Shown in pieces: positions 1 to 15,102 of a stretch of DNA of 64,000 bases. A program made the position numbers and the translations under genes. The first letter of the stretch is position 1. Each line of letters starts with the position of its first letter. Origin of the DNA: Escherichia coli (GTDB lineage: Bacteria > Pseudomonadota > Gammaproteobacteria > Enterobacterales > Enterobacteriaceae); assembly GCF_003019035.1 (NCBI RefSeq), contig NZ_CP027447.1; one strand, 5' to 3'. The notes beneath the pieces were generated by a model. The model did no database searches and was not told the DNA's origin. It saw only the letters and a program-made list of their open reading frames with translations.

Positions 1-1
1 T

Positions 2-376
2 AATACCTATCTTAGCGGCATTGGATTTGAAAGTAGCGGCCTGGCGGCAGCTCATGCCATTCATAACGGCATGACGCAACTGGAGGAATGCCATCATTGC
101 TACCACGGTGAAAAAGTGGCATTTGGCGTCCTGGTACAGCTCGTACTGGAAAACGCACCACAGGAGGAAATTGAAACCGTACTCAATTTCTGCCATAGCG
201 TTGGTCTGCCGACAAATCTTCATATGTTAGGCGTGAAGGAAATTAATAAAGATAAATTACGGGCAGTGGCTGAAGCAGCGACTGCTGAAGGGGAAACTAT
301 CCATAATATGCCATTCGTAGTAACAGCGCAGGACGTTCTTTGCGCAATTTTAACTGCACATCATTTGGGACTTTAA
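2..376 (+). CDS. Glycerol dehydrogenase family protein (iron-containing alcohol dehydrogenase), 5' end outside window
   Basis: In-frame translation from the window edge gives ...[50 protein letters not shown]..., which matches the C-terminal region of GldA-type glycerol dehydrogenases; stop at 374-376. It is a paralog, not the canonical gldA locus. Confidence 0.75.
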
Positions 377-443
377 AAAAATAATACGGCCTGTGCAAAG
401 CAGGCCGTTGGTGTCATTTTAAATACTTCATTCGGGAATAAAT

Positions 444-1712
444 ATGACCAGTAACTGGAAACGTTGGATCACGCTGGCGTTATGTGGTATTGCCGGAAGT
501 GCAATATATAAATTGCCTTATTTACGGGAAACCTATTACGACGCGATGCAGCAGGCTACAGGAGCGACTAATGCTGAACTTGGTTTTCTAATGACAGCCT
601 ATGGTCTGGTGAACTTTTTATTATATCTACCTGGCGGTTGGGCTGCCGATAGATTTTCTGCACGTAAATTAATGACCTTTTCATTAATTTCCACCGGGAT
701 AAGTGGTTTTTATTATGCGACCTTCCCCTCGTATACTATGATCTGTTTGTTACATGCACTTTGGGCTGTTACAACCGTATTTACGTTTTGGGCCGTGTGT
801 GTGCGAATTATTCGTACCCTGGGAACCAGCGAAGAACAAGGTCGCTTATACGGTTACTGGTTTCTGGGTAAGGGATTAACCTCCATTGTACTGGGATTTC
901 TTTCCGTGCCGGTATTTGCCAAATTTGGCGAAGGTGTTGATGGTTTACGGGCGACAATTATTTTTTATTCCGTAGTGACTATTCTGGCCGGTGTTTTAGC
1001 TTGGTTTGTTTGTCAGGATGAAACGCACAGCGAAGATAAAGCGAATTTCCGTCTGGCAGATATGGCATTCGTGCTGAAAATGCCGACGGTTTGGCTGGCA
1101 GGTGTTGTGACCTTTTGTATGTGGTCAATTTATATCGGCTTTGGCATGGTCACGCCGTATCTCACGCAGATCCTGCATATGGGCGAATCGGAAGTGGCAG
1201 TTGCCAGTATTCTTCGCGCCTATGTGTTATTTGCGATGGGGGGATTAATTGGCGGACAACTGGCCGACCGCTGTGCGTCACGCACGCGTTTTATGATTTA
1301 CGCCTTTATCGGCATGATTGTCTTTACTACCGTTTATTTCTTCCTGCCCGGTGAGTCGCGCTACGTCACTATTGCGCTGGCGAATATGGTTGCGTTGGGC
1401 GTGTTTATTTACTCTGCGAATGCCGTGTTCTTCTCAATTATTGATGAGGTTCGGATCCCGGCAAAAGTCACAGGGACTGCTGCGGGTCTGATCTCTTTAC
1501 TGACTTATTTCCCGGAAATCTACTGCTACACGATGGTGGGCAATATGGTCGACCGCAAACCGGGTATTGCCGGTTATCAGGATGTTTTCCTGTTCATGTT
1601 GGTTTGCGCATTCATCGGCCTTATCGCCGCACTGGTCCTCCAGCGTGTGAATCGTAAAAGTAAAAATCAAGTCAATGAAATCACTGAAAACAATGCGGAT
1701 TGCGCATCCTGA
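444..1712 (+). CDS. MFS-type membrane transporter
   Basis: 422-aa ORF, highly hydrophobic with multiple predicted TM segments and a basic loop (ADRFSARK) after the second hydrophobic stretch, typical of MFS permeases; substrate unknown. Confidence 0.65.
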   Translation: MTSNWKRWITLALCGIAGSAIYKLPYLRETYYDAMQQATGATNAELGFLMTAYGLVNFLLYLPGGWAADRFSARKLMTFSLISTGISGFYYATFPSYTMICLLHALWAVTTVFTFWAVCVRIIRTLGTSEEQGRLYGYWFLGKGLTSIVLGFLSVPVFAKFGEGVDGLRATIIFYSVVTILAGVLAWFVCQDETHSEDKANFRLADMAFVLKMPTVWLAGVVTFCMWSIYIGFGMVTPYLTQILHMGESEVAVASILRAYVLFAMGGLIGGQLADRCASRTRFMIYAFIGMIVFTTVYFFLPGESRYVTIALANMVALGVFIYSANAVFFSIIDEVRIPAKVTGTAAGLISLLTYFPEIYCYTMVGNMVDRKPGIAGYQDVFLFMLVCAFIGLIAALVLQRVNRKSKNQVNEITENNADCAS

Positions 1713-1729
1713 GTCTGACGGGGGAACCA

Positions 1730-3094
1730 ATGGTGGACATGATTAATGAAAGTGCACGGCAAACGCCAGTCATTGCACAAACGGACGTTCTGGTTATCGG
1801 GGGCGGTCCGGCAGGATTAACGGCGGCGATAGCGGCGGGGCGGCTAGGTGCCAGAACCATGATTGTTGAGCGTTACGGCTCACTAGGCGGCGTATTGACG
1901 CAGGTTGGTGTGGAAAGTTTTGCCTGGTATCGCCATCCGGGGACGGAAGATTGTGAAGGGATTTGTCGTGAATATGAAGGCCGCGCGCGAGCATTGGGCT
2001 TCACGCGACCAGAACCTCAGTCAATTAGCGAAGTTATAGATACTGAAGGATTTAAAGTTGTTGCCGATCAGATGATAACGGAAGCTGGCGTTGAGCCGTT
2101 ATATCACTCCTGGGTTGTGGATGTGATCAAGGAAGGGGATACGTTATGCGGTGTTATTGTCGAGAACAAATCAGGACGAGGGGCAATTCTGGCGAAAAGA
2201 ATCGTCGATTGCACGGGGGATGCTGATATTGCTGCTCGTGCAGGCGCGCCCTGGACGAAACGGGGAAAGGACCAACTGATGGGCGTCACCGTGATGTTCA
2301 GTTGCGCAGGTGTCGATGTGGCGCGCTTTAACCGTTTTGTTGCGGAAGAACTTAAGCCGACCTACGCGGATTGGGGAAAAAACTGGACGATTCAAACCAC
2401 GGGCAAAGAAGACCAGATGTTTAGCCCTTATATGGAGGATATTTTTACCCGGGCGCAGCAGGATGGTGTGATTCCAGGCGACGCCCAGGCGATTGCCGGA
2501 ACCTGGTCAACCTTTTCTGAAAGCGGCGAAGCGTTTCAGATGAATATGGTGTACGCCTTTGGTTTTGACTGTACCGATGTCTTCGATTTAACCAAAGCAG
2601 AAATCGCCGGAAGGCAGCAAGCATTATGGGCAATTGACGCTCTACGCCATTATGTTCCGGGCTTTGAAAATGTACGGTTACGCAATTTTGGCGCCACGCT
2701 GGGTACACGTGAATCACGGCTTATTGAGGGGGAAATACGTATTGCTGATGATTACGTCCTTAATCAGGGGCGTTGTTCGGACAGTGTAGGGATTTTCCCG
2801 GAATTTATTGATGGTTCCGGTTATCTCATTTTGCCAACGACCGGGCGTTTCTTTCAGATCCCCTATGGCTGTCTGGTGCCACAAAAAGTGGAGAACCTTT
2901 TGGTCGCCGGTCGCTGTATTTCCGCAGGCGTAGTTGCACATACTTCTATGCGCAACATGATGTGTTGTGCCGTTACCGGTGAGGCCGCAGGCACTGCCGC
3001 CGTGGTTTCGCTACAGCAACATTGCACCGTGCGTCAGGTTGCTATCCCTGATTTGCAAAACACGCTGCAACAGCAGGGCGCACGTCTGGCATAA
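1730..3094 (+). CDS. FAD-dependent oxidoreductase
   Basis: N-terminal dinucleotide-binding motif VLVIGGGPAGLTAA and internal CTGDADIA motif; paralog of the ORF at 12263-13633 (same motifs, colinear). Start moved to the ATG at 1730, preceded by a GGGGGA Shine-Dalgarno; the track ORF start at 1700 overlaps the upstream gene. Confidence 0.7.
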   Translation: MVDMINESARQTPVIAQTDVLVIGGGPAGLTAAIAAGRLGARTMIVERYGSLGGVLTQVGVESFAWYRHPGTEDCEGICREYEGRARALGFTRPEPQSISEVIDTEGFKVVADQMITEAGVEPLYHSWVVDVIKEGDTLCGVIVENKSGRGAILAKRIVDCTGDADIAARAGAPWTKRGKDQLMGVTVMFSCAGVDVARFNRFVAEELKPTYADWGKNWTIQTTGKEDQMFSPYMEDIFTRAQQDGVIPGDAQAIAGTWSTFSESGEAFQMNMVYAFGFDCTDVFDLTKAEIAGRQQALWAIDALRHYVPGFENVRLRNFGATLGTRESRLIEGEIRIADDYVLNQGRCSDSVGIFPEFIDGSGYLILPTTGRFFQIPYGCLVPQKVENLLVAGRCISAGVVAHTSMRNMMCCAVTGEAAGTAAVVSLQQHCTVRQVAIPDLQNTLQQQGARLA

Positions 3095-3394
3095 CAACAA
3101 GGCGCAGAGAGCTGAAAACCTGTCTGCGCCTTGCAGGAGAAAGACCATGAGGGATGATGACCTTGAGCACTTAAGTGCCAATTACTGGATAACCACAGTT
3201 CTCTGCGGCCTCTTTTTGGGGATATTCCTGTTCATGCTGCAACAGCATCAGTGTGGTTTAGCTCTGTATTGTATTGCGGTACTTTCACTTATTTGCGCCT
3301 TTTTTTCTTTACGCCTTTCCCGACAATTGCAACACATGAAAAAGGAACGGCGAAATATTCGTCCTCATTGAATGAAAACATTCAGGAGACTGAA

Positions 3395-4936
3395 ATGCAA
3401 TATTTAAAAAAACGCTTTTCTTTGATTGAACTGAATGTGTTTATCCCAGCAATATTATTTATTGCGGTAATCATTCTGTGTTTGACGATATATCCACAAG
3501 ATACCAGCCGGTATATAAATAAAATACATCATTTTTTAACCTGGGAAATGGGCGGGATTTTTCTGGTCATGACTTTTCTGGTTGTACTTTGTTGTCTGTG
3601 GCTGGCCTTCTCACGTTATGGCGATATCTTGTTAGGTCAGTCGGGAGAAAAGCCTGACTTCAGCTTGTTAACCTGGCTTGGACTTATTTTTACTTCTGGA
3701 ACGGGGGGCAGCTTGTTATATCTGGCCTCTGTAGAGTGGATTTGGATCATTCAGCAACCGCCTTTTGGCGCGGCAGCAGGAAGCGCTCAGGCTGCTCGTT
3801 GGGCCTCTGCTTATGGCATGTTCCATTGGGGGCCGTCCGCATGGGCATGGTATCTGATTTGTGCCGTTCCCATTGGTTGGTTTATGCATGTTAAGAAAAC
3901 GAACTCATTAAAGGTCAGTGATTTATGCCGTGGGTGTCTGGGGGCACGTGCTGATGGTTTTTGCGGGCATTGTGTGAATTTTTTCTACATGTTTGGTTTG
4001 CTCGGCGGCGCGGTAACGTCTCTGGCGCTGGGAACGCCGATGATTTCTGCCGTATTTTGCCATGTGTTCCATCTGGATCCTGCCGGGCAGTTTATCAATG
4101 TCATGGTTATTTTTATCTGGACGCTAGTGCCATTATTAATTCTCTTTTTTGGACTTAAAAAAGGTGTGGCATGGGCCAGTAACTGGAATATTCGTGCCGA
4201 TATTTTTATGCTACTGGCAATACTGATTTGTGGACCGACAGCTTTTATACTTAACCAATCAATTGATGGTTTCGGCCTGATGCTGCAAAATTTTGTAGCG
4301 ATGAGTTTAAGTACCGATGCTATTGGTCGTAGCGGATTTCCACAGATGTGGACCGTATTTTATTTTTCATGGTGGGTCGTGTATGCCATCCCATTCGGTT
4401 TATTTATCGCCCGTATTTCAAAAGGAAGGACGATCCGGCAATTGATTGTATGTGGAACTCTGGCAGGTTCATTGGGATGCATGGTTTTTTACATGGTACT
4501 GGCTAATTTCGGCTTATCGTTGCAGACAACTCATGTCATCGATTTTGTTCCCATACTTAACGAACAAGGGCGAGGCGTTGTCGTTTCTCGTTTACTGGAG
4601 CAGCTACCCGCAAGTCAGGTGTTTTTGGTTGCTTTTGGGGCTATAGCATTAATTTCATATATTACCGGACACTGTACTGTGGGTTATGCCCTCGGTTTTG
4701 CGACGCAAAAACGGGCAGATAGTGAGAGTGAACCGGCATTCTGGAACGTGGCATTTTGGTTGATTATGACCGGAATCGTCGCCATCACACTCTATCTTCT
4801 TGATGCGCAAAGTCTGCAACCGCTACAAACGGTCTCTATACTGGCCGGACTACCGCTTTGCGGCGTAGTGTTTATTTTATTGAAGAGTTTTTTGACACAG
4901 TTTGCGGCTGAAGAGAAAACCGCGAGAGATGAATAA
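3395..4936 (+). CDS. BCCT-family (betaine/carnitine/choline-type) transporter
   Basis: Polytopic membrane protein with Trp-rich segments (GPSAWAWYL, WWVVYAIPFGLFIARISKGRTIRQ) characteristic of BCCT carriers. Start set at the ATG at 3395 (MQYLKKRF), preceded by CAGGAG; the track ORF from 3251 is an unlikely N-terminal extension. Confidence 0.7.
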   Translation: MQYLKKRFSLIELNVFIPAILFIAVIILCLTIYPQDTSRYINKIHHFLTWEMGGIFLVMTFLVVLCCLWLAFSRYGDILLGQSGEKPDFSLLTWLGLIFTSGTGGSLLYLASVEWIWIIQQPPFGAAAGSAQAARWASAYGMFHWGPSAWAWYLICAVPIGWFMHVKKTNSLKVSDLCRGCLGARADGFCGHCVNFFYMFGLLGGAVTSLALGTPMISAVFCHVFHLDPAGQFINVMVIFIWTLVPLLILFFGLKKGVAWASNWNIRADIFMLLAILICGPTAFILNQSIDGFGLMLQNFVAMSLSTDAIGRSGFPQMWTVFYFSWWVVYAIPFGLFIARISKGRTIRQLIVCGTLAGSLGCMVFYMVLANFGLSLQTTHVIDFVPILNEQGRGVVVSRLLEQLPASQVFLVAFGAIALISYITGHCTVGYALGFATQKRADSESEPAFWNVAFWLIMTGIVAITLYLLDAQSLQPLQTVSILAGLPLCGVVFILLKSFLTQFAAEEKTARDE

Positions 4937-4991
4937 TGATGTTCAGGAATGCCCGGTAATTTGCATTATCGGGCATTTTACCGAACGGGAA

Positions 4992-6134
4992 TTAACTCAG
5001 GACTGCATGAAAATACCCTGCCAAATTTTCTCCGAGACGAATTAAATTATTTTCCCCCTGACTCAGCGCGGTGGGTAAATCACAAGGACCATTGACGACG
5101 GAAAAACAGGCTTCGATTCCACACTGGCGTAACTCATTCAAATCAAGTTGATCATCGATATACCCGGCAATTGCGATAACCGGAACGCCCATCATCTGGG
5201 CGATTTTGGCCGCCCCCACAGGTGCTTTGCCATTCAGGCTTTGACGGTCTAATTTACCTTCACCGACAATCGCCAATGCTGCATATTTTAAATGTTGGGT
5301 ATATTGAATCGCTTCCAGCACGAGCGAAATACCCGGTTGTAAGCGAGCATCGAGAAAAGCCATCAAGGCCGCGCCAACGCCGCCAGCCGCCCCAGAACCG
5401 GGTATCGTATCGACTTCTTTACCACAACAACGGTAGATGCAACGGGCATAGTTTTTCATTCCCTGTTCCAGTTGCTCAAGGTTGTCAGCACTGGCCCCTT
5501 TTTGTTGAGCAAAAACCCGAGTCGCGCCGTTATCGCCGGTTAGTGGGTTGGTGACATCACAGGCTGCAATAAATTTCACATTTTTCAATCGTGGATCGAG
5601 GTGCTGTAAGTCAATGTGGTGAATTGCCGCCAGCCCCATCCCATTAACGGAGACTGATTGCCCTTCGGCGTCTGTAAACGATGCGCCAAGTGCCGACATC
5701 AACCCAATACCGCCATCATTTGTAGCACTGCCACCCAGGCATAGAATAACGGTATCAATATTGTGTTCCAGGGCGGCGAGAATAAGTTCGCCAGTGCCAA
5801 ACGACGTCGTATAAAGGGGAGAACGCTGGACAGGAGAAACCAGTTCCAGCCCTGAAGCTTGTGCCAGTTCTATCACTGCGGTGGTTTGGTTGCCTAAAAT
5901 ACCGTATTGCGCATGTATTGATTCTCCAAGCGGTCCGGTGACTTTTTTAGTGTAAAACGTACCGTCAGTCGCATGAATGAGTGTTTCGAGCGTGCCTTCG
6001 CCGCCGTCAGCCACGGGCAAACACACCAGTTGGCTGCCAGGCAGGACCTTGCGCCAGCCGGTTGCCAGCGCTTCGGCGACTTTCCATGCGGGAAGGCATT
6101 CTTTAAAGGAGTCGGGGGAGATAACTATCTTCAT
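4992..6134 (-). CDS. Glycerate kinase (GlxK/GarK family)
   Basis: 380-aa ORF beginning MKIVISPDSFKECL... with GGSATNDGG and AAGG motifs typical of glycerate kinases; last gene of a gcl-hyi-reductase-kinase operon on the minus strand. Confidence 0.85.
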   Translation of the reverse strand: MKIVISPDSFKECLPAWKVAEALATGWRKVLPGSQLVCLPVADGGEGTLETLIHATDGTFYTKKVTGPLGESIHAQYGILGNQTTAVIELAQASGLELVSPVQRSPLYTTSFGTGELILAALEHNIDTVILCLGGSATNDGGIGLMSALGASFTDAEGQSVSVNGMGLAAIHHIDLQHLDPRLKNVKFIAACDVTNPLTGDNGATRVFAQQKGASADNLEQLEQGMKNYARCIYRCCGKEVDTIPGSGAAGGVGAALMAFLDARLQPGISLVLEAIQYTQHLKYAALAIVGEGKLDRQSLNGKAPVGAAKIAQMMGVPVIAIAGYIDDQLDLNELRQCGIEACFSVVNGPCDLPTALSQGENNLIRLGENLAGYFHAVLS

Positions 6135-6208
6135 AGCAGGTCTCTCAAAATAGGGGAATGGGGCAGGGCAACGAGTGAACGAAGGGAACCGGTGGTTCCC
6201 TTAATTCA

Positions 6209-7096
6209 TTATTTACGGATAGTGAAATTGGCTTGTGTTTCAAGCGCCCGAATTAGCGCAGAATGATCCCACTCTTTACCACCAAGCGCGGCGCAGGCGC
6301 TAAATAATTGTTGCGTCATAGCCGTGTTAGGAAGCGGGGTATTCAACAGGCGAGCATTCTCCAGTGCCAGATTCAGATCTTTTTGATGCAGGCTAATTCG
6401 AAAACCAGGGGCGAATGTCCCTTTGATCATCCGTTCGCCATGAACTTCCAATACACGAGAGGAAGCAAAACCCCCCATCAGAGCTTCACGTACGCGGGCG
6501 GGATCGGCACCTGATTTACTGGCAAAAAGCAGGGCTTCAGCCACCGCTTCAATATTCAGTGCAACAATAATTTGGTTAGCGACTTTGCACGTTTGACCAT
6601 CACCGATGTTACCGACCAGAGTGATATTTTTACCCATCAATTCCAGAATCGGTTTGATCTGTAAATAAACCTCTTCACATCCGCCAACCATAATGGAAAG
6701 CGTCCCGGCTTTCGCGCCAACTTCACCGCCAGAGACGGGCGCATCGATATATTCCGCGCCTCCCGCGATAATACGTTGTGCAAATGCTTTGGTGGCAACC
6801 GGGGAAATTGAACTCATATCAATGACAATTTTCCCGTGGCTTAAACCGTGTATTACGCCATAGTTGGGATGAAAAAGAACATCCTCAACATGTGGGGTAT
6901 CAGGGAGCATGGTGATGATGACCTCACACTCCTGCGCGACTTCACGCGGTGTAGAGCAAACAATGCCACGTTCACCAATAAGCTCTTGCGGTGCAGGTTC
7001 AAAATGCGCTGAAAAATAAAGAGTATGTCCGGCTTGTTGTAAATTATAAGCCATCGGCTTACCCATTATGCCGGTGCCGATAAATCCAATATTCAT
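6209..7096 (-). CDS. Tartronate semialdehyde reductase (2-hydroxy-3-oxopropionate reductase, GlxR/GarR family)
   Basis: 295 aa; N-terminal NAD-binding GFIGTGIMG and the block KNITLVGNIGDGQTCKVANQIIVALNIEAVAEALLFASK are near-identical to E. coli GlxR; overall a diverged paralog. Confidence 0.85.
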   Translation of the reverse strand: MNIGFIGTGIMGKPMAYNLQQAGHTLYFSAHFEPAPQELIGERGIVCSTPREVAQECEVIITMLPDTPHVEDVLFHPNYGVIHGLSHGKIVIDMSSISPVATKAFAQRIIAGGAEYIDAPVSGGEVGAKAGTLSIMVGGCEEVYLQIKPILELMGKNITLVGNIGDGQTCKVANQIIVALNIEAVAEALLFASKSGADPARVREALMGGFASSRVLEVHGERMIKGTFAPGFRISLHQKDLNLALENARLLNTPLPNTAMTQQLFSACAALGGKEWDHSALIRALETQANFTIRK

Positions 7097-7113
7097 GATA
7101 AATACCTCAGGGA

Positions 7114-7896
7114 TTAAAATTGAGTCTCGTTTTTTAGCCAGCGTAGACTTTCAGTCGTTGTCGTAGATGGAATATATTCGCAACCAATCCATCCCTGATA
7201 ACCAATCTGGTCTATATAATTTAACAACCACGGGTAATTAATTTCTCCCGTCCCTGGTTCATGACGCCCAGGGTTATCGGCTAATTGAATATGTCCAATG
7301 TTATTCAGGTTGTTTTTGATTGTTGTAGCAATATTCCCTTCCATGATTTGCATATGATAAATATCGTATTGGTAGCGCAAATCAGGATGTTTTACATCAT
7401 GAATAATATTGAGAGCTTGTCTGGTATTGTTAACAAAAAAACCGGGAATATCTTTTGTATTAATGGCTTCCAGAACTAACTTTATCCCATGAGAAGCCAA
7501 TTTATCTACCGCATAGCGCAAATTTTCGACCAGTGTTTCATGACATTGTTCATGCGAATAACCACCTGGATGTTTTCCTGCAAGGCAATTAACTTGTGAA
7601 CAATTAAGGGCCAATGCATACTCTATTGCCCTGGAAACGCCCTCCTGAAATTCTTTTGCCCGACCAGGATGACATGCAATACCCCGTTCACCCTCTTGCC
7701 AGTTACCCGCAGGAAGATTAAACAGAACCTGCGTCAGATTATGTTGATGCAGTTGCGAAACTAACTCATCTGCAGAAAAGTCATAGGGGAAAAGATACTC
7801 AACGCCGTGGAATCCTGCGTGACTTGCCTGTGCAAAACGTTCAATAAATGGATACTCGGTAAAGAGCATAGATAAATTTGCTGCAAACTTTGCCAT
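7114..7896 (-). CDS. Hydroxypyruvate isomerase
   Basis: 260 aa; conserved Hyi blocks (ANLSMLF, GERGIACHPGR, LVENLRYA, QYDIYHMQIMEG, GTGEINY); paralog of K-12 Hyi. Confidence 0.85.
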   Translation of the reverse strand: MAKFAANLSMLFTEYPFIERFAQASHAGFHGVEYLFPYDFSADELVSQLHQHNLTQVLFNLPAGNWQEGERGIACHPGRAKEFQEGVSRAIEYALALNCSQVNCLAGKHPGGYSHEQCHETLVENLRYAVDKLASHGIKLVLEAINTKDIPGFFVNNTRQALNIIHDVKHPDLRYQYDIYHMQIMEGNIATTIKNNLNNIGHIQLADNPGRHEPGTGEINYPWLLNYIDQIGYQGWIGCEYIPSTTTTESLRWLKNETQF

Positions 7897-7908
7897 AATC
7901 CTGTTTCC

Positions 7909-9648
7909 TTATAAATCGAGAATTTCTTCAAATTCTGTGACTTTATTAATGTCAGGTCCCATAGCGATATTAGTCACGCGTTCAGTAATAATTTCCACAA
8001 CAACAGGTACGTGAAATTCGTCACGCAAACGCTGGGCTTCTTGCAGTGCAGGCGCAATATCCTGTGATGCGAATACGCGAATCGCTTTACATCCTAATCC
8101 TTCAACCACAGCTTTATGATCAACGCCATAACCATTAATTTCTGGAGCATTAATATTTTCAAATGACAGTTGAACGCAATAATCAATATCAAATGCACGT
8201 TGTGATTGACGAATCAAACCAAGATAAGCGTTGTTAAGTAAAATATGGATATACGGAAGATTAAATTGTGCGCCGACGGCTAATTCTTCAATCAAGAATT
8301 GAAAATCGTAATCACCGGATATTGCCACAACGGGAACAGATGGATCAGCTTTTACCGCGCCCAGTGCTGCGGGCATTGTCCAGCCTAGCGGCCCAGCCTG
8401 ACAGGCATTAATCCAGTGGCGTGGGCGGTAAACATGTAAAAATTGGTTTGCGGCGATTTGCGCCAGACCAATTGTCGAAATATAGCGTGTCTCCGGTCCG
8501 AAAACCTTATTCATTTCGTGATACACGCGCTGCGGTTTAATTGGATTGCAGTCAAAGTCTGAACGACGAAGCATTGTGCGTTTACGCTCGGCACATTCGG
8601 CAATCCAGCGACTGCGGTCTTTCAGTTCTCCACGTGACTTCATATCACGGGCGACCTGAATAAATAGCGTTAAGGCGCTTTCAGCATCAGAAACAATGCC
8701 CAGATCCGGCGCAAATATCCGGCCAATTTGTGCAGGTTCGATATCAACATGAATGAATTTGCGGCCTTCGGTGTAGGTCTCAATGGCTCCGGTATGACGG
8801 TTTGCCCAACGGTTACCGATACCAAAAACAAAATCGGAGGCCAGATAACTGGCGTTACCATAGCGATGACCCGCCTGACATCCCATGCGACCAATCATTA
8901 GGGGATGATCATCTGATAATGCGCCCCAACCGCGTAAGGTTTGAATGACGGGAACGCCAGTTAACTCGACAAACTCACGCAACAATTCACTCGCTTCGGC
9001 GTTAATAATGCCACCGCCAGCGATGATGACGGGCTTTTCGGCGCCATTTAGCATTTCTAATGCGCGTACGGCCTGGGCCCGTGTTGCCTGAGGTTGCCAG
9101 GGGGTTAGTGGCTGATAGAGATCGATATCAAACTCAATTTCGGTCATCTGAACATCAAAAGGGAGATCTAAAAGAACCGGGCCAGGGCGGCCTGAACGCA
9201 TTTCCCAGAAGGCTTTCTGGAATATCCCCGGCAACTGACCCGCTTCGAGAATTGTGCGAGCCATTTTGGTTACTGGCGTGGCGATAGCCTCAATATCGAC
9301 GGCCTGGAAATCTTCTTTATGAAGTTTTCCTACGGGAGCTTGACCAGTAATGCAGAGAATAGGAATGGAATCCGCGGAGGCGGAATAAAGCCCCGTAATC
9401 ATATCAGTGCCCGCAGGGCCTGATGTGCCAATACACACGCCAATATTGCCATTCTGACTGCGGGTGTAACCTTCAGCCATATGCGAGGCGCCCTCAACAT
9501 GACGGGCCAGAATATGATCAATACCGCCTGATTTTTTCATCGCGGCATAGAGTGGGTTGATTGCTGCGCCGGGTACACCAAAAGCAACGCTAATGCCTTC
9601 TTTTTTCAGTATTTCTACTGCAGCTTCGATTGCACGCATCCTCGCCAT
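7909..9648 (-). CDS. Glyoxylate carboligase (tartronate-semialdehyde synthase), ThDP-dependent
   Basis: 579 aa; colinear with K-12 Gcl ([20 protein letters not shown]..., [43 protein letters not shown]) but clearly diverged, so a second gcl-type gene rather than the canonical locus. Confidence 0.88.
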
Positions 9649-10026
9649 ACATTATTTCTCCTGATATTTACGCTGAGTTGAATAGTCAGTCAATTTTGGA
9701 ATTTAACGACGAAATATCTTTGAGGAAATAAAAGGGCAGAACAAATTTCGCTGCACTGTTTCACAGTGAAACAACTCGTATGCCTGTGTTGTTTCAGTTT
9801 GAATAATGATAAATATCAAACGCAAAGATTTCAGATGTTGTTGGCAGTTTTAAAATTTATCTAATGTATTATTCGTTTTTTATTGCTTTAACGGTTATTC
9901 TTTCTAATGTATGTATGGTTACATTGTTGATAAGGTCTGTTTTTGTAATGATCCAGACTAGATATTATTGCGTTTGATCAAGCTTACTGGCATAGCATTC
10001 TGATACAAGTTCTGAAAATGACTTGA

Positions 10027-11976
10027 ATGGATATTATTATAATGAATAAAGAGTCGTATCATAATGATCTAAAAAATAAATGGAAAATGTTTGTTAAGCA
10101 TGGTTGGGTCGCGACAAATTCGACTAATCATGTGATGCTGAGGTCATGGCAAAAATGTCTCAAGCATTGTGACCCTCGCCACTGGAACACGCCTGTCAAA
10201 GCTTCCGGGCAAACATTGCAGACGATTTTTTCTCGTAACGAAGAGTTTATTAGAATTTCACAAAGAGTTGTTGAAGACCATTTCACTCTGGCTGGTGACG
10301 ACCGGTTGGCATTTTTGATCATTGACCCACACGGCTGGGTTCTATCGTTGAATGCAGCAGGCGATTATTCCAGTCAATTGCGAGAGTTAGGAATTGAATC
10401 TGGTATGTCATGGGCCGAAGATGGCATTGGAACCAATGTATATAGTCTTTGTCGGGAAACAAATTTATATACACAACTGGAAGGAGCAGAACATTTTAGT
10501 GAACAGCTACATTGTTATGCGATGAGCGCTGCTCCGGTCATTGATTATTATGGTAATATCCATGGATACATTGTATGTATAATTGAAACTACCGCCGAGC
10601 TTGTTAAATTAAAAACATCATATTCATGTGCAACAGAAATCGCTAATTATATCTATATTGAGAATGAACAAAAGTTAATAAACAAAGTACTTTGCCAGCA
10701 TAATGCTGTGATTGAATGCATGGATGACGGTTTTATTTGTTGGAATAGTCATTCTTTAATTACGATGGTTAATTCTCAAGCACAAACACTACTGAATATT
10801 GATAAAGAAAGTTTAATTGGTCAGAACATCCGAAAAGGATTCGTATTTCCGCCGATTTTGAATGAGGCAATTACACAACGGAACAAACTATCGCAAAAGC
10901 AAATTGTCCTCGAATGCCGTGGCGAATTTATTGAACTTATGGTTACCCTTCGCCCGTTAAGCGATGGTTCGTTTTTACTTTTTCTTCATCCATTAGACAA
11001 AATCAGGAAAATAGCCCAACAGCAAATAAGCACTAATGCAAATTTTACCTTTGACAGTTTACATGCGGCTTCAGGTGGTATGAAGCAGGTATTACTTATC
11101 GCTCGCCGGGCAATTAAATCCATCTCTCCGATTTTGATCAATGGCGAAGAAGGTGTGGGAAAATTGAGTTTGGCGATGGCAATACATAATGAGAGCGAGC
11201 AACGTGATGGGCCATTTATTTCTGTAGATTGTCAGATGCTATCACCAGAAAATATCTTACACGAACTTCTTGGCTCTGATGTTGGCCCTTCGCCATCGAA
11301 ATTTGAACTGGCTCATAATGGCACCTTATATCTGGATAAAGTCGAATATCTATCAGGGGAAGTTCAGAGTGTTTTATTGAAAGTATTGAAAACGGGGCTT
11401 GTTACTCGCTCAGACAGCCATCGTTTGATCCCCGTACGCTTTCGCCTGATTACATGTACCAGTAGTTCGTTACGTGAGTACGTGCAACAAGGGGCTTTTA
11501 GCCGACAGCTATATTATGAGATCTCCATGAATGAAATTGAAATTCCGCCATTGCGCAAACGTCGTGAAGATCTCAAGCAAATGATTGACGATATTATTGA
11601 TAAGTATCAGGAGCGCACTCGAAAAAAAATGACAATCACGCCTGACGCAAATTCAGTTCTGCTTGAGTACCGTTGGCCTGGAAACATCTCCGAGTTCAAA
11701 AATCGAATGGAGAAGGTATTTATTAACTGCAATCGGCTTGTCCTCGGATTAGAGAATATTCCTCTGGATATCCGACAAAATAACAGTAGTGGCGACGATG
11801 ATATCCCTCATCTTACTTCACTGGCAGAATTGGAGATGCAAGCTATTGAGCATACATGTCGTGTCTGCGAATGGAATCTAACTAAAGCAGCTGAAGTATT
11901 AAAAATTGGTCGTACAACATTATGGCGCAAGCTTAAAATCTATAATCTCTATCCAAATGTTGAGCATGCAGATTGA
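10027..11976 (+). CDS. DhaR-like transcriptional regulator (sensor domains + degenerate AAA+ sigma54-interaction domain + Fis-type HTH)
   Basis: 649 aa; central block INGEEGVGKLSLAMAIHNESEQRDGPFISVDC ... FSRQLYYE and C-terminal IGRTTLWRKLK closely parallel E. coli DhaR (CGEEGVGKALLSQAIHNESE ... IGRTTLWRKMKQ), with no GAFTGA motif. Divergent from the gcl-type operon. Confidence 0.75.
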   Translation: MDIIIMNKESYHNDLKNKWKMFVKHGWVATNSTNHVMLRSWQKCLKHCDPRHWNTPVKASGQTLQTIFSRNEEFIRISQRVVEDHFTLAGDDRLAFLIIDPHGWVLSLNAAGDYSSQLRELGIESGMSWAEDGIGTNVYSLCRETNLYTQLEGAEHFSEQLHCYAMSAAPVIDYYGNIHGYIVCIIETTAELVKLKTSYSCATEIANYIYIENEQKLINKVLCQHNAVIECMDDGFICWNSHSLITMVNSQAQTLLNIDKESLIGQNIRKGFVFPPILNEAITQRNKLSQKQIVLECRGEFIELMVTLRPLSDGSFLLFLHPLDKIRKIAQQQISTNANFTFDSLHAASGGMKQVLLIARRAIKSISPILINGEEGVGKLSLAMAIHNESEQRDGPFISVDCQMLSPENILHELLGSDVGPSPSKFELAHNGTLYLDKVEYLSGEVQSVLLKVLKTGLVTRSDSHRLIPVRFRLITCTSSSLREYVQQGAFSRQLYYEISMNEIEIPPLRKRREDLKQMIDDIIDKYQERTRKKMTITPDANSVLLEYRWPGNISEFKNRMEKVFINCNRLVLGLENIPLDIRQNNSSGDDDIPHLTSLAELEMQAIEHTCRVCEWNLTKAAEVLKIGRTTLWRKLKIYNLYPNVEHAD

Positions 11977-12262
11977 TGCTTTTCAAATTGAAAGAATTTT
12001 AATATCGCAGTGTTTCATTTTGATGCAGTGCTTTAATGGTATTGAAATATTGTGATGTGCTCCATAAATGCCAATGTGGTTATTAGCCAGGGAGACGGAA
12101 AATGTGTTTACACTCCTGAAATAATAAAAAATAGGCAAAGAGAGATGATCTCCTTGTATGTCTGTATTAGCATGATGTTGCTTGTTAATAATTAAAAATA
12201 TCAACGCGCTTATATAAGCGCGGGGGATTGTTTTACTCAATTATTGAATACGGAGATAAAGT

Positions 12263-13633
12263 ATGGAATTTTATCTGGAACCCGCTCGTAATATACCTGT
12301 ACTGGCAACCACGGAAGTGTTAGTTGTTGGTGGTGGTCCATCGGGTATTGCCGCAGCAATGAGTGCCGCTCGTGAAGGCGCAGCTACTATGCTGATTGAA
12401 CGTTTCGGTTGTTTTGGCGGAATGATGACAACGGCTGGCGTCGAGTCAATTGCCTGGTGGCGTCATGAAAATACGGTAGAGTCAGGTGGACTGGCACGCG
12501 AAATAGAAGAAACGGCAAAATCAATGGGGGCGTCCAGCCCTGAGCCGCAATCGAATAGTCAGGCTATTAACGCCGAGCGTTTCAAACTGGTTGCGGATGC
12601 AATGCTTGAACAGGCAGGTGTGCGCCGCGTACTACACATTACCGCCGTTGATGTTATTAAGCAGGGCAATAATTTACTCGGCGTAATAACAGAGAGTAAA
12701 TCTGGTCGTCAGGCTATTTTGGCGAATGTCATTATTGACTGTACTGGCGATGCCGATATTGCATGGTTTGCCGGAGCACCATTTATTAAGCGTGAACGTG
12801 AAGACCTGATGTGTATGACAACCGTTTTTAGTTGCGCAAATGTCAATAAAAACGCGTTCATGCAAAATATTAAGAGCACGGAACCTAAATATGGAGACTG
12901 GGGGGCGGATGAAGAAAATAAAAACTGGTCTTATGATGTTCATGAATCTTGTCGCGATATGTTTAGCCCTTATCTGGGTAAAGTCTTTGCGAAAGGAAAG
13001 TCGGCAGGAATTATTCCAAAAGATGTGACGTTAGGCGGTTCCTGGAGTACGGTCACCGAGTATGGTGATGCGAATTACTTGAACGTTGTCAGCATCCCTG
13101 CCGTCGATTGTACGGATGTTTTTGACCTGACGCGTGCAGAAATAGAAGGCCGCAAGCAAGCCATGCAGGCGATTGAAGCGTTGCGTCAATTCCAGCCAGG
13201 ATTTGAACAGGCACAATTAAAAAATTTCGGTATGACGGTGGGAACAAGAGAATCAAGACATATTATTGGGCGAGTCCAGCTTACGGAAAATGATATTTGT
13301 AATGAGGGACGTCATGCGGATTCAATAGGGGTATTCCCTGAGTTTATAGATGGAAATGGTCATCTTAAATTACCTCTTGAAGCGAACTATTTTCAAATCC
13401 CTTATGGCGTAATGATTCCGCAGCAAGTTGAAAACCTGTTGGTTTGCGGACGGGCAATCGATGCAGATAATTTCGCCTATGCGACAATCCGTAATATGGG
13501 GTGTTGTATTGTCACTGGAGAAGGTGCAGGGACTGCCGCTGCTATTGCCATTAAAAATAACACTACCGTTTCACAGGTAGATATTCAGACGGTACAGGAA
13601 CGCTTACAGCAAAATGGCGTAAAAGTCTTTTAA
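12263..13633 (+). CDS. FAD-dependent oxidoreductase (paralog of 1730-3094)
   Basis: 456 aa; VLVVGGGPSGIAAA Rossmann motif and CTGDADIA motif, colinear with the ORF at 1730-3094; first gene of an operon with the downstream transporter. Confidence 0.7.
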   Translation: MEFYLEPARNIPVLATTEVLVVGGGPSGIAAAMSAAREGAATMLIERFGCFGGMMTTAGVESIAWWRHENTVESGGLAREIEETAKSMGASSPEPQSNSQAINAERFKLVADAMLEQAGVRRVLHITAVDVIKQGNNLLGVITESKSGRQAILANVIIDCTGDADIAWFAGAPFIKREREDLMCMTTVFSCANVNKNAFMQNIKSTEPKYGDWGADEENKNWSYDVHESCRDMFSPYLGKVFAKGKSAGIIPKDVTLGGSWSTVTEYGDANYLNVVSIPAVDCTDVFDLTRAEIEGRKQAMQAIEALRQFQPGFEQAQLKNFGMTVGTRESRHIIGRVQLTENDICNEGRHADSIGVFPEFIDGNGHLKLPLEANYFQIPYGVMIPQQVENLLVCGRAIDADNFAYATIRNMGCCIVTGEGAGTAAAIAIKNNTTVSQVDIQTVQERLQQNGVKVF

Positions 13634-13647
13634 CAGGGAATAAAGTT

Positions 13648-15051
13648 ATGAGAGAAAAACCCAGTTTTTATGTCGCGCTTACACCGATCATTTTTATGAT
13701 GATCGTGTTGGTTGTTGGCATCGGTGTTATGGGCTGGCCTGCCAGCGTCTGTTTATTAATTTCAGCGGCGTTTTCCTGCATTATTGCAATGGCTAAGCTG
13801 AAATATACCTGGGATGAAATCCAGGGGTTTATTATCGATAAGATTTCGGCGGTGATGGCACCGGTACTTATCGTTATTTTCGTTGGCTTTATGGTCGCGA
13901 CATGGAGCTATGCAGGTACACTGCCGATGCTGGTTTATTACGGTATGTTACTGGTTGCGCCCGCATGGCTTTATGCCATAGCGTTTTTTCTGAACGCAAT
14001 ATTGTCCTATGTTTCCGGGGCATCATGGGGATCTGTCGCTTCTATTGGTGTTGCATTAATGGGCATCGGTTCCGGCTTACATGCCGATCTTCCAATTCTG
14101 GCGGCAGCCATTGTTACCGGGGCTTATTTTGGCGACAAACTTTCACCGTTAAGTGATACCACTAACCTGACTTCAGCGGTAACCAAAACTAAACTTTATG
14201 ATCTGATTAAATATCTACTCTGGACGACCATCCCATCAACGATTATTAGCCTGCTGTTTTTTACCTGGCTGGGAATGATTCATACTTCTACGGGCTCTAT
14301 TTCACCAGAAAGCATGCAGATGCTGGTACAGCTCAAAGAGTTATATAAGTTTGGTCTGTTACCGCTACTGCCTATGCTTATTGTTCTGTGCTTTACCTTT
14401 TTGCGTTTGCCTACAGTACCGGCATTATTAAGCAGTGCGTTCGTGGCCGTATTGGTTGGATGGCTGTATCAAGGTTTCCCGCTGGCCGAAGGTATTAAGG
14501 CCACAATGAGTGGTTTCCGTCTGACGATGATCACTGATTCAACGACGCTGTTACCTTCTGTGAAAGAACTGCTTGAACAAGGCGGCCTGAATAATCAGGG
14601 CGGATTCCTGTCATTTATTATCTGCGCCATGATGTTTGCTGGCATCCTGACGGGAACAGGAATGATGGATGTCACATTACAAAGTGCGGCAAACAAAATA
14701 AAAAGTGCTTTTGGCGCTATTCTGGCAAGCGGTGTTTTAGCGATCATCATTAACTTACTTACCGGTTCTGATGGTTTGAATAAGATTGTTATATCTGAAT
14801 TGATGATGAAGAAATTCGAAGATCTTAATTTATCACCGTTAGTCTTAGCCCGAACGCTGGAAGATTTTGGCACCATGAGCGCGCCAATTATTCCGTGGTC
14901 AGCTGCCGGATTGTATATGGCGACAACACTAGGCGTGCCGACGTTTAGTTACTTGCCGTACTGTGTATTCTGTTTCTGCTCGATGATATTTGCGTTGATC
15001 TATGCTTCTACAGGTTTCCGTTTACTGCGCTTCAACGAAGCAAAGGCCTGA
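13648..15051 (+). CDS. NhaC-family Na+/H+ antiporter-like transporter
   Basis: 467-aa polytopic membrane protein with the NhaC-type motif GAYFGDKLSPLSDTTNL; begins 14 nt after the upstream oxidoreductase. Confidence 0.65.
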   Translation: MREKPSFYVALTPIIFMMIVLVVGIGVMGWPASVCLLISAAFSCIIAMAKLKYTWDEIQGFIIDKISAVMAPVLIVIFVGFMVATWSYAGTLPMLVYYGMLLVAPAWLYAIAFFLNAILSYVSGASWGSVASIGVALMGIGSGLHADLPILAAAIVTGAYFGDKLSPLSDTTNLTSAVTKTKLYDLIKYLLWTTIPSTIISLLFFTWLGMIHTSTGSISPESMQMLVQLKELYKFGLLPLLPMLIVLCFTFLRLPTVPALLSSAFVAVLVGWLYQGFPLAEGIKATMSGFRLTMITDSTTLLPSVKELLEQGGLNNQGGFLSFIICAMMFAGILTGTGMMDVTLQSAANKIKSAFGAILASGVLAIIINLLTGSDGLNKIVISELMMKKFEDLNLSPLVLARTLEDFGTMSAPIIPWSAAGLYMATTLGVPTFSYLPYCVFCFCSMIFALIYASTGFRLLRFNEAKA

Positions 15052-15076
15052 GTTATTCAAGATAATAAATGCGTTT

Positions 15077-15102
15077 GCCGGATGGATTAATCTCCATCCG
15101 GC
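15077..15102. terminator. Putative bidirectional hairpin terminator between the convergent transporter and hypT genes
   Basis: Perfect 9-bp inverted repeat GCCGGATGG / CCATCCGGC with an 8-nt loop in the 86-bp convergent gap. Confidence 0.45.

Follow-up and report, generated by a model that had tools for sequence, protein, structure and literature searches.

The GimA (ibeA) Island of Escherichia coli as a Probable Catabolic Regulon with a DhaR-Type Regulator and Carrier-Paired Flavoenzymes

The analysed window is a 64,000 bp stretch of the Escherichia coli contig NZ_CP027447.1. [quoted passage not shown] The whole 20.3-kb locus is probably one catabolic regulon for one or a few related small, polar, charged compounds. 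Its gene content suggests a single regulon, governed by the DhaR-type regulator IbeR, that would lead to dihydroxyacetone phosphate and, via glyoxylate, to phosphoglycerate. The curated cut-offs were passed by the glyoxylate carboligase (Gcl), hydroxypyruvate isomerase (Hyi), reductase, glycerate kinase, DhaK, DhaL and glycerol dehydrogenase, and by the Enzyme I domain. A broader reading has, in our estimate, about an even chance of being right: GimA would be no invasion island but the E. coli form of a widespread catabolic regulon, in which carrier-paired IbeA-family flavoenzymes split small charged molecules into a glycerol/dihydroxyacetone unit and glyoxylate, and IbeR senses dihydroxyacetone flux.

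Identity, Borders and Distribution of the Island

The name GimA and a functional annotation of the locus date from 2001 (Huang et al. 2001; Homeier et al. 2010, PMC2878320); it measures 20.3 kb, with a G+C content of 46.2% (PMC2878320). Its operons are ptnIPKC, cglDTEC, gcxKRCI and ibeRAT. The ibeA gene has been much studied (PMC2878320, PMC4359115, PMC7545054), and the island is overrepresented among meningitis and avian pathogenic strains (PMC2878320).

The window contains the right 15.1 kb of the locus, or about three quarters of it: the end of GimA2 (cglD, cglT, cglE and cglC), GimA3 (the gcx glyoxylate operon) and GimA4 (ibeR, ibeA and ibeT). Operon order and strands match the published layout, with the ptn operon and most of cglD lying outside the window. 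The insertion site is between iraD (yjiD) and hypT (yjiE), which abut in K-12; K-12 homology stops after iraD and restarts at window position 15,134. The left border is about 5.2 kb before position 1, and the right border is at 15,133. The insert of strain SMS-3-5 spans 20,327 bp and has a G+C content of 46.15%, and the window is 99.7% identical in DNA to this annotated region, where ibeA is labelled. The part of the insert in the window has a G+C content of 45.3% (rest of the window 49.6%), with values among the island genes ranging from 40% to 52%.

The sequence-only reading of this DNA had proposed an accessory island upstream of hypT, which agrees with the lower G+C content and with the K-12 arrangement. 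All the genes that it listed are present at essentially the right coordinates; the extent given for the insert (1–15,100) is too short, by some 5.2 kb on the left and up to position 15,133 on the right. It had also regarded the gene combination as undescribed. This was wrong, because GimA had already been named, and the RefSeq annotation labels its genes.

Compared with the GimA of studied ExPEC strains (PAI-iraD), the site, size, G+C content and gene order are all the same. Nothing substantial differs, the window merely being cut 5.2 kb inside the island and thus lacking GimA1 and most of cglD. The allele is nearest to those of phylogroup-F-like strains such as SMS-3-5 (99.7%), versus 95–99% for classical B2 strains; ibeA itself is 99.3% identical in DNA to that of BEN2908 and UM146 and 98.5% to that of LF82. 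GimA was found in 246 of 5426 complete E. coli genomes, and the whole 15 kb is present in every one of the 246 ibeA-bearing genomes.

The cgl Operon

The window begins within cglD (plus strand), of which the last 125 codons (1–376) are included, the start lying 706 bases before the window. The GldA-like dehydrogenase recognised earlier is thus present, though as a 3′ fragment, and its translation is identical to the C-terminal part of the glycerol dehydrogenase of SMS-3-5. Full-length CglD is 57% identical to K-12 GldA and scores 558 bits with the NCBIfam glycerol dehydrogenase model (cut-off 336); its score with the glycolaldehyde reductase model (442 bits) is below the 550-bit cut-off. The next gene, cglT (444–1712, plus strand), encodes an MFS transporter of 422 aa with multiple hydrophobic stretches; 13 overlapping hydrophobic segments were counted, which is typical of a polytopic membrane protein. 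Among the NCBIfam models, those of the PgtP and galactonate-type anion transporter families match it, but only weakly.

The product of cglE (1730–3094, plus strand) is an FAD oxidoreductase of 454 aa belonging to the IbeA family (PF12831). CglE is 68–78% identical to BCCT-linked homologues of Vibrio, Photobacterium, Pseudovibrio and Endozoicomonas and falls in the flavoenzyme orthologue group that adjoins BCCT carriers. The operon ends with cglC (3395–4936, plus strand), coding for a BCCT-family carrier of 513 aa (356 bits with the general BCCT model). Its best NCBIfam match is the CaiT-type L-carnitine/gamma-butyrobetaine antiporter, at 391 bits and below the 541-bit cut-off. A substrate with a choline-like head group, hinted at earlier from this carrier type, is a conjecture.

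The 300-bp gap between cglE and cglC holds a candidate gene for a small membrane protein of 74 aa with two hydrophobic segments (3147–3371, plus strand). A Shine-Dalgarno-like AGGAGA is located 7 nt before its ATG. The ORF has no RefSeq annotation in SMS-3-5; the exact 74-aa sequence occurs on at least 1000 contigs and is called a "hypothetical protein" in other E. coli records.

The gcx Glyoxylate Operon

Four contiguous minus-strand genes make up GimA3. The first of the operon is gcxC (7909–9648), encoding glyoxylate carboligase (NF008431, 1077 bits, cut-off 791), followed by gcxI (7114–7896) for hydroxypyruvate isomerase (TIGR03234, 390 bits, cut-off 353), gcxR (6209–7096) for 2-hydroxy-3-oxopropionate (tartronate semialdehyde) reductase (TIGR01505, 383 bits, cut-off 341) and gcxK (4992–6134) for glycerate kinase (TIGR00045, 550 bits, cut-off 168). 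GcxI also exceeds the cut-off of the 2-oxo-tetronate isomerase model (377 versus 325 bits). The pathway logic proposed earlier, from glyoxylate through tartronate semialdehyde and glycerate to phosphoglycerate, fits these assignments, each of the four proteins exceeding at least one NCBIfam cut-off; judged by family membership, the gcx proteins would convert glyoxylate to phosphoglycerate.

The earlier view that these are diverged paralogues and not the canonical locus was confirmed. Amino acid identity to the K-12 proteins is 69.6% for GcxC and Gcl, 55.5% for GcxI and Hyi, 62.8% for GcxR and GlxR and 47.8% for GcxK and GlxK, far from near-identity; GcxK is 49% identical to GarK, and GcxR is 42% identical to GarR. 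The canonical gcl-hyi-glxR block is present in 5408 of the 5426 complete genomes, and therefore at least 228 of the 246 island-bearing genomes carry both copies. The four enzyme families and their order are shared with the glycerate pathway of the K-12 allantoin regulon (gcl-hyi-glxR...glxK). In K-12, however, glxK is separated from the other three genes by about 4.4 kb, with allW, allB and ybbY in between, while the gcx operon is without all genes and without AllR/AllS and has a DhaR-type box upstream instead.

Dihydroxyacetone Kinase Genes, IbeR and DhaR-Type Boxes

The left end of the island, outside the window, carries dhaK, dhaL and a dhaM-Enzyme I fusion, which together encode a PTS-type dihydroxyacetone kinase equipped with an Enzyme I of its own. 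DhaK scores 460 bits with TIGR02363 (cut-off 406) and DhaL 248 bits with TIGR02365 (cut-off 138); in the fusion, the DhaM domain reaches 120 bits with TIGR02364 (cut-off 98) and the full Enzyme I domain 461 bits (cut-off 342). Identity to the E. coli dhaKLM-dhaR system is 59% for DhaK and 55% for DhaL. The two systems differ in that the island DhaM is fused to a full Enzyme I (793 aa versus 472 aa), a glycerol dehydrogenase gene is divergently linked in the island, and the regulators are only 33% identical.

This regulator, encoded by ibeR (10,042–11,976, plus strand), has a GAF/PAS sensing end, an AAA+ core and an HTH, the domain order of DhaR. It scores 986 bits with the NCBIfam DhaR equivalog NF008485 (cut-off 551), and its alignment with K-12 DhaR spans residues 35 to 636 at 33% identity. 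In a full-length alignment, the sigma-54 contact motif GAFTGA is absent from both IbeR and K-12 DhaR, and no sigma-54-type promoter was found in the intergenic regions of the island. DhaR depends on sigma-70; DhaL activates it and DhaK represses it (PMC10084136).

The inverted repeat TGTTTCA-N3-TGAAACA, a putative DhaR site, is present in the K-12 dhaK promoter and also precedes gcxC, ibeA and the ptnK/cglD pair. In K-12, TGTTTCATAGTGAAACA and a second copy 31 bp on lie 117 bp upstream of dhaK. The arrangement before gcxC matches: TGTTTCACAGTGAAACA, a perfect 7-3-7 inverted repeat, and TGTTTCAGTTTGAATAA, 33 bp apart (9757–9806), are 109–158 bp upstream of the gcxC start codon. The distance between box pair and gene seen at K-12 dhaK is kept at gcxC and ptnK. 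A third box in the window, TGTTTCATTTTGATGCA (12,011–12,027), lies between ibeR and ibeA, 236 bp upstream of ibeA. Unlike in the E. coli dha system, the island boxes thus stand before a glyoxylate operon and a flavoenzyme-carrier operon as well. The 64-kb window contains three boxes (0.32 expected), a number reached in none of 100 shuffles, and all three fall in GimA promoter regions. Over 1.59 Mb of loci searched, five matches with at most one mismatch were found, all of them in dha or GimA-like clusters.

The IbeA Flavoenzyme Family

The 456-aa product of ibeA (12,263–13,633, plus strand) is a soluble flavoprotein of an uncharacterised family. PF12831 matches it end to end (E = 1e-93 over residues 18–448), the Rossmann FAD motif starts at residue 19, and G23, G25 and G28 of the GxGxxG motif are invariant in 65 homologues. 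The AlphaFold2 model shows a globular flavoprotein fold with a mean pLDDT of 94.4. No export signal and no hydrophobic or membrane-anchoring segment was found in IbeA, the highest 19-residue hydropathy being 1.43. RefSeq names the protein a [quoted passage not shown], and the second-hand account of Paris 2024, in which IbeA is a homodimeric FAD protein, agrees with a soluble flavoprotein.

IbeA and CglE are 51% identical; the two paralogous flavoenzymes, the three carriers and the DhaR-like regulator described earlier are all borne out. The IbeA-family flavoenzymes form three orthologue groups with one carrier type each, and IbeA belongs to the group adjoining NhaC-type carriers. Members of the family share about 50% identity over a range that extends from enterobacteria to marine Rhodobacterales and Chloroflexi, and sequences assigned to haptophyte and dinoflagellate algae also belong to it.

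The glyoxylate-releasing oxidases ThiO (glycine oxidase), IdaA (iminodiacetate oxidase) and glyphosate oxidoreductase were considered as relatives of IbeA and rejected: they belong to Pfam DAO, not PF12831, and are 13–16% identical. Geranylgeranyl reductase, FixC and halogenases outscore DAO-type oxidases against IbeA-family proteins. ThiO, IdaA and glyphosate oxidoreductase oxidise the bond beside a carboxymethyl group, releasing glyoxylate, and the likeness to the IbeA family lies in a possible mode of action alone, not in membership.

Related Gene Sets in Other Genera

Outside E. coli, the GimA-like gene set was seen in five genera from two proteobacterial classes: Citrobacter, Serratia, Vibrio, Photobacterium and Pseudovibrio. 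In Citrobacter sp. NCU1, a single cluster combines gcl-hyi-glxR-glxK and dhaM/EI-dhaL-dhaK with gldA, a flavoenzyme and an MFS carrier. In Pseudovibrio stylochi, an uninterrupted same-strand run contains gcl-hyi-glxR, a glycerate 2-kinase, gldA, dhaK, dhaL, dhaM/EI, a flavoenzyme and an MFS carrier; the glycerate 2-kinase is non-homologous and fills the same slot. BCCT and NhaC carriers, flavoenzymes, gldA, dhaKLM/EI and a DhaR-like regulator occur together in Vibrio jasicida and Photobacterium, and in Vibrio these are followed by a gcl gene. The Serratia cluster comprises an MFS carrier, gldA, dhaKLM/EI, an IbeA homologue and NhaC, with no gcl module within 10 kb. In most other bacteria, the homologues of 45–57% identity have unrelated neighbourhoods. 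This and the missing gcl module of the Serratia cluster count against the regulon reading.

Proposed Mechanism and Alternative Explanations

In the proposed scheme, each compound would be imported by its own carrier, the BCCT protein CglC, the NhaC-type IbeT or the MFS protein CglT, and oxidised by the neighbouring cytoplasmic IbeA-family flavoenzyme, CglE or IbeA. In the smallest clusters no pathway-specific catalyst other than the flavoenzyme is encoded, and therefore the oxidised product presumably breaks up unaided; a C-N, C-O or C-S link beside the oxidised carbon is the obvious guess for the bond broken. A C3 fragment would give dihydroxyacetone via CglD, to be phosphorylated by the PEP-dependent kinase of the island (DhaK, DhaL and DhaM fused to a complete Enzyme I). 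The C2 fragment would be glyoxylate, converted to phosphoglycerate by Gcl, Hyi, the reductase and glycerate kinase in turn. IbeR, like DhaR, would be a sigma-70-type activator reading the nucleotide state of DhaL and the occupancy of DhaK; the island encodes paralogous DhaK and DhaL, and binding of these to IbeR is the control that we infer. Dihydroxyacetone flux would therefore induce all operons via the boxes. The invasion and stress phenotypes of ibeA, ibeR and ibeT mutants may then be indirect metabolic consequences.

Classically, GimA is a virulence island and IbeA a surface-exposed invasin for vimentin, PSF and Caspr1, with the metabolic genes as accessories or as mere modulators of invasion according to carbon source. 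Many experimental papers report such receptor binding, which speaks against the regulon reading, and the literature on ibeA, ibeR and ibeT mutants, with reduced invasion and virulence, as well as the enrichment of the locus in pathogenic strains, favours the invasin. We nevertheless hold it unlikely: the protein has neither a signal peptide nor a hydrophobic segment, its FAD motif, end-to-end PF12831 match and confident model are those of a flavoprotein, and RefSeq now calls it an oxidoreductase. Free-living Vibrio, Photobacterium and Serratia carry homologues of 68–86% identity within this set of catabolic genes, and others of 45–57% occur in marine bacteria, an archaeal MAG and algae. The island could also be a mosaic of unrelated neighbours, namely a module for the fermentation of glycerol/dihydroxyacetone, a surplus glyoxylate module and ibeRAT as a stress module acting on an unrelated substrate of its own. 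Every module alone is a complete known pathway, the Serratia cluster does without gcl, and the spread in gene G+C content would suit such an origin; this is improbable, however, given the recurrence of the combination in five further genera (with the same-strand Pseudovibrio run and its non-homologous kinase), the common box before the gcx, ibeA and ptnK/cglD units and the presence of the whole 15 kb in all ibeA-bearing E. coli genomes.

A role in redox or stress defence was also weighed, in which IbeA and CglE would be reductases detoxifying an oxidant or reactive aldehyde and the island would protect rather than feed; we give it only a slim chance. On this view CglD would reduce glycolaldehyde, methylglyoxal or hydroxyacetone, and the dihydroxyacetone kinase and Gcl would clear toxic dihydroxyacetone and glyoxylate. 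Both of the latter are reactive carbonyl compounds, and the sub-threshold match of CglD to the glycolaldehyde reductase model points the same way. According to Flechard 2012 (as cited) and PMC4359115, loss of ibeA, ibeR or GimA increases sensitivity to H2O2; for ibeA and ibeR mutants this is not obviously predicted by a purely catabolic role, a point against the regulon reading. Three dedicated uptake-type carriers, each with its own flavoenzyme orthologue group, suit nutrient import better, though, and a complete route to glycolytic intermediates is encoded. The catabolic regulon is thus the reading preferred here.

The island as such has no discovery value, because its name dates back 25 years and RefSeq annotates it. 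Being a named island, though not a characterised pathway, it fits in part the refuting condition set in the sequence-only reading. Many ExPEC typing schemes use its ibeA gene as a virulence marker, while the sequence evidence points to a cytoplasmic enzyme of a nutrient-use regulon. The earlier caution that the substrate and the flavoenzyme reactions could not be deduced stands, and no paper identifying either was found in a literature search. Once identified, the substrate would recast the long-standing invasin story and could reveal a host or dietary compound favouring meningitis-associated, avian-pathogenic and adherent-invasive lineages. If the catabolic regulon is real, knowing the substrate would also give a function to the conserved flavoenzyme family, and the virulence phenotypes of ibeA mutants would be metabolic side effects.

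The Right Edge of the Island

The last island gene, ibeT (13,648–15,051, plus strand), encodes an NhaC-family carrier of 467 aa (TIGR00931, 381 bits, cut-off 370), with the ArcD arginine/ornithine antiporter as the second-best model (291 bits). It is convergent with hypT (15,138–16,049, minus strand), in front of which K-12 homology is restored. Between ibeT and hypT, and just short of the right border of the insert, lies a hairpin, GCCGGATGGA-TTAATC-TCCATCCGGC (15,077–15,102).

Identity of the insert

GimA has been described as a 20.3-kb cluster with a G+C content of 46.2%, located at the yjiD-yjiE site and composed of the operons ptnIPKC, cglDTEC, gcxKRCI and ibeRAT (Homeier et al. 2010, PMC2878320, summarising Huang et al. 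2001). In K-12, iraD (yjiD) directly adjoins hypT (yjiE) with no insert, and alignment to K-12 places the insert studied here from just past iraD to window position 15133. The closest genome, SMS-3-5, is 99.7% identical across all 15,100 bases, and its insert is 20,327 bp long with a G+C content of 46.15%. The 456-aa flavoprotein is labelled ibeA in RefSeq. IbeA has been studied in strains BEN2908, UM146 and LF82, and the window copy of the gene shares 99.3% identity with ibeA of the first two and 98.5% with that of LF82. The insert is thus almost certainly GimA, an already known object. The sequence-only reading had held that the gene combination was not a described pathway. As a combination it is GimA and has a name; as a pathway the statement stands, with no substrate named in the literature searched, in which Huang 2001, Flechard 2012, Paris 2024 and Bachler 2005 were covered through papers citing them.

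The island was found in 246 of 5426 complete E. coli genomes. In all 246 ibeA-bearing genomes, 80% or more of the 15-kb query maps to a single place, chromosomal in every case, consistent with the view of Homeier et al. that the island is inherited vertically.

Gene content

The ORF list of the window agrees with the RefSeq annotation of SMS-3-5, so the gene inventory of the sequence-only reading is correct, and every protein could be assigned to a family. The GldA-like dehydrogenase of that inventory is present, but only a fragment of it, the last 125 codons of the glycerol dehydrogenase gene cglD, lies inside the window (1-376, + strand). It is followed on the same strand by genes for an MFS transporter (444-1712), a FAD oxidoreductase (1730-3094) and a BCCT carrier (3395-4936). 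Genes for glycerate kinase (4992-6134), 2-hydroxy-3-oxopropionate reductase (6209-7096), hydroxypyruvate isomerase (7114-7896) and glyoxylate carboligase (7909-9648) are oriented in the reverse direction. The DhaR-like regulator (10042-11976), second FAD oxidoreductase (12263-13633) and NhaC-type carrier (13648-15051) are oriented forwards again, and hypT (15138-16049) is on the minus strand.

The gap between cglE and cglC is occupied by a 74-aa ORF (3147-3371, + strand), which has a good ribosome-binding site and whose product contains two hydrophobic segments. It is unannotated in SMS-3-5 RefSeq, an identical protein is recorded as hypothetical in many other E. coli records, and it may explain why published GimA gene counts differ (14 vs 15). 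A scan of window 1-16500 against Rfam at E <= 0.1 gave no match, and hence no known riboswitch or leader in this 300-bp gap.

In the SMS-3-5 copy, three further proteins are encoded within the 5.2 kb left of the window. The island DhaK is 59% identical to its K-12 counterpart (TIGR02363, 460 bits vs a cut-off of 406) and the island DhaL is 55% identical to K-12 DhaL (248 vs 138). The third, of 793 aa, is a DhaM-type EIIA-HPr module fused to a complete Enzyme I, with the N-terminal, mobile and C-terminal domains of PEP-utilisers (TIGR01417, 461 vs 342). CglD shares 57% identity with GldA and scores 558 bits against a cut-off of 336 for the glycerol dehydrogenase model. Judged by these families, DhaK, DhaL, DhaM/EI and CglD are predicted to make up a self-contained route from glycerol through dihydroxyacetone to DHAP.

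Comparison with the canonical glyoxylate locus

In BLASTP comparisons with K-12, identities were 69.6% for Gcl, 55.5% for Hyi, 62.8% for the reductase against GlxR (42% against GarR) and 47.8% for the glycerate kinase against GlxK (49.2% against GarK). All four proteins exceed the curated NCBIfam cut-offs (Gcl 1077 vs 791 bits, Hyi 390 vs 353, reductase 383 vs 341, glycerate kinase 550 vs 168). Of the 5426 genomes, 5408 have the canonical gcl-hyi-glxR block, and therefore at least 228 of the island-bearing genomes have two copies. The possibility that the island is simply the canonical gcl locus was ruled out by the 48-70% identity and the near-universal canonical copy elsewhere in the genome; the four genes are paralogues, as first proposed. 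The Hyi paralogue (7114-7896, - strand) also passes the 2-oxo-tetronate isomerase (OtnI) model, with 377 bits against a cut-off of 325; since the two models overlap, its assignment to hydroxypyruvate leans partly on gene context. The two flavoproteins of the island, CglE and IbeA, are 51% identical to one another.

IbeR and DhaR-type boxes

IbeR is 32.6% identical to K-12 DhaR by BLASTP. An alignment of the two spans residues 35 to 636, and the GAFTGA motif is absent from IbeR, as it is from DhaR. DhaR acts at a sigma-70 promoter, is activated by DhaL and is repressed by DhaK (PMC10084136). The island itself encodes DhaK and DhaL, and the DhaR-like regulator therefore has cognate partners inside it. 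No match to the sigma-54 promoter consensus was found in the island intergenic regions, the overall count being at chance level. A generic sigma-70 promoter scan was uninformative, since counts were not above those of shuffles.

Comparison of the island intergenic regions revealed a shared motif. Between dhaK and dhaR, K-12 has TGTTTCATAGTGAAACA, a perfect inverted repeat that lies 117 bp upstream of dhaK, and a degenerate second copy 31 bp further along. Candidate DhaR-type boxes upstream of gcxC are the perfect TGTTTCACAGTGAAACA at 9757 and TGTTTCAGTTTGAATAA at 9790, a pair lying 109-158 bp from the gene; another, TGTTTCATTTTGATGCA, is found upstream of ibeA at 12011. Just outside the window, in the divergent ptnK-cglD region, two more boxes are spaced 32 bp apart and precede ptnK (dhaK) by 94-126 bp. 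The 64-kb window contains three boxes with at most two mismatches, where 0.32 would be expected, and none of 100 shuffles gave as many. With at most one mismatch, 1.59 Mb of loci from many bacteria yielded five, all in dha or GimA-like clusters (E. coli GimA, K-12 dhaK, two in Photobacterium and one in Citrobacter NCU1). The motif is specific. In Photobacterium, Vibrio and Citrobacter, boxes stand ahead of carrier and flavoenzyme operons.

The inverted repeat is a putative DhaR operator, and we infer a single IbeR regulon, comprising the gcx, ibeA-ibeT and ptn/cgl transcription units, that senses dihydroxyacetone flux. There may be cross-talk with the chromosomal DhaR. The literature searched yielded no mention of DhaR-type boxes in GimA.

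The IbeA flavoenzyme

IbeA is a full-length match to Pfam PF12831 (E = 1e-93), and no hydrophobic segment was found in its 456 aa. It carries a GxGxxG motif at the FAD site, and arginines R329 and R410, candidate catalytic residues, are invariant across 65 homologues. Papers citing Paris et al. 2024 describe it as a homodimeric FAD protein. The AlphaFold2 model has a mean pLDDT of 94.4. A PDB sequence search matched a FAD-binding motif of 40-90 residues only, and relatives retrieved from AFDB50 with the model are all unnamed. Relatives sharing 45-57% identity have a very wide distribution, covering Rhodobacterales, SAR86, Halieaceae, Chloroflexi, Desulfobacterales and a Lokiarchaeota MAG. AFDB50 entries assigned to algae show 39-49% identity at TM-scores of at least 0.9, including Chrysophaeum (39%) and Emiliania huxleyi, Symbiodinium and Cladocopium (the latter two Symbiodiniaceae; 44-47%); one assigned to Chloropicon primus is 33% identical, with a TM-score of 0.95. 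These entries may be true algal genes or contaminating bacterial sequence.

Beyond the clusters of enterobacteria, Vibrionaceae and Pseudovibrio, the 45-57% homologues (Rhodobacterales, Desulfobacterales, Chloroflexi, SAR86 and two Roseobacter plasmids) have heterogeneous neighbourhoods that give no consistent substrate clue; ABC ATPases, aminotransferases, C-S lyase-family enzymes, an AnmK-like kinase and housekeeping genes occur there. Neither sequence nor fold allows the reaction to be deduced.

Related clusters in other bacteria

Relatives of IbeA were searched for and their gene neighbourhoods compared; each gene set given below lies together in one neighbourhood. Citrobacter sp. NCU1 carries gcl-hyi-glxR-glxK, dhaM/EI-dhaL-dhaK, gldA, a flavoenzyme and an MFS gene. 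The alphaproteobacterium Pseudovibrio (Polycladidibacter) stylochi has gcl, hyi, glxR, a non-homologous glycerate 2-kinase, gldA, dhaK, dhaL, dhaM/EI, a flavoenzyme and an MFS gene in a single uninterrupted run on one strand. Vibrio jasicida and Photobacterium nomapromontoriensis share genes for BCCT, a flavoenzyme, a second PF12831 protein (25% identical), a cyclophilin-like protein, an IbeA orthologue, NhaC, gldA, dhaK-dhaL-dhaM/EI and a DhaR-like regulator; in V. jasicida a gcl gene comes after the cluster. Serratia sp. S1B has MFS, gldA, dhaKLM/EI, an IbeA orthologue and NhaC, with no gcl within 10 kb.

Three orthologue groups can be distinguished among the flavoenzymes, and each is tied to one kind of carrier: an IbeA-type group with NhaC (68-86% identity inside the group), a CglE-type group with BCCT (67-78%) and a third with MFS (72%). 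Identity between groups is 47-60%.

The second PF12831 protein, of 425-445 aa and about 25% identical to IbeA and CglE, follows the BCCT-flavoenzyme pair in Vibrio, Photobacterium and Pseudovibrio (loci L006, 5056-6784; L094, 7898-9602; L090, 11402-12679). In both Vibrionaceae, a 123-aa cyclophilin-like protein (PF04126) comes next. Neither protein is present in E. coli. In Vibrio, a PatB-like C-S lyase gene immediately precedes the ibeA orthologue.

Proposed function

The gene set seen in the sequence-only reading is confirmed, and its interpretation is partly supported. On balance, GimA is probably a catabolic regulon. One or a few related small charged compounds would enter via CglC, IbeT and CglT and be oxidised in the cytoplasm by CglE and IbeA. 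The product presumably splits unaided into glyoxylate and a C3 unit at the glycerol or triose level, because the smallest clusters, those of Citrobacter NCU1 and Pseudovibrio, have no pathway-specific catalyst besides the flavoenzyme. The C3 unit would pass through CglD and the PEP-dependent kinase to DHAP, and glyoxylate would be converted to phosphoglycerate by Gcl, Hyi, the reductase and glycerate kinase. Dihydroxyacetone turnover would activate IbeR via DhaL and DhaK. Carboxymethyl ethers or amines, opine-like or glycation-type adducts, the DGCC betaine-lipid head group, onium compounds (DMSP relatives) and C2/C3 sulfonates were considered as substrates and are not claimed; confidence in any particular one is very low.

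A mosaic of unrelated modules is unlikely, because the modules recur together in other bacteria and share boxes before the island operons. Recurrence in two proteobacterial classes favours one functional unit over a chance mosaic, as does the exchange of the glycerate kinase for an unrelated enzyme of the same function. Many experimental papers stand behind IbeA as an invasin; however, the protein lacks any export signal and its catabolic gene context is conserved in free-living bacteria, which makes this role improbable. A role of the island in detoxification or redox balance would account for the H2O2 phenotypes but leaves unexplained three uptake carriers paired with flavoenzyme orthologue groups, and we regard it as somewhat less probable still. 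What is still of interest is the substrate question, the family to which the flavoenzymes belong, and the way in which DhaR-type boxes link all parts of the GimA locus.

Other variable regions of the window

Window ~37,800-46,600 is not colinear with SMS-3-5, a 743-bp piece being the sole match; the SMS-3-5 counterpart is a variable restriction/defence region (GmrSD, symE and hsd remnants). By colinearity with SMS-3-5, window ~50,200-55,900 corresponds to a second accessory cluster, between btsT and tsr, which in that genome encodes an amino acid deaminase, an N-acyl-D-amino-acid deacylase, a RidA protein, a sodium:solute symporter and an RpiR-type regulator. K-12 is not known to carry such genes between btsT and tsr. 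The inverse autotransporter IatD is encoded by a 5.2-kb gene at ~19,400-24,600 (- strand), located between kptA and yjiJ in SMS-3-5.
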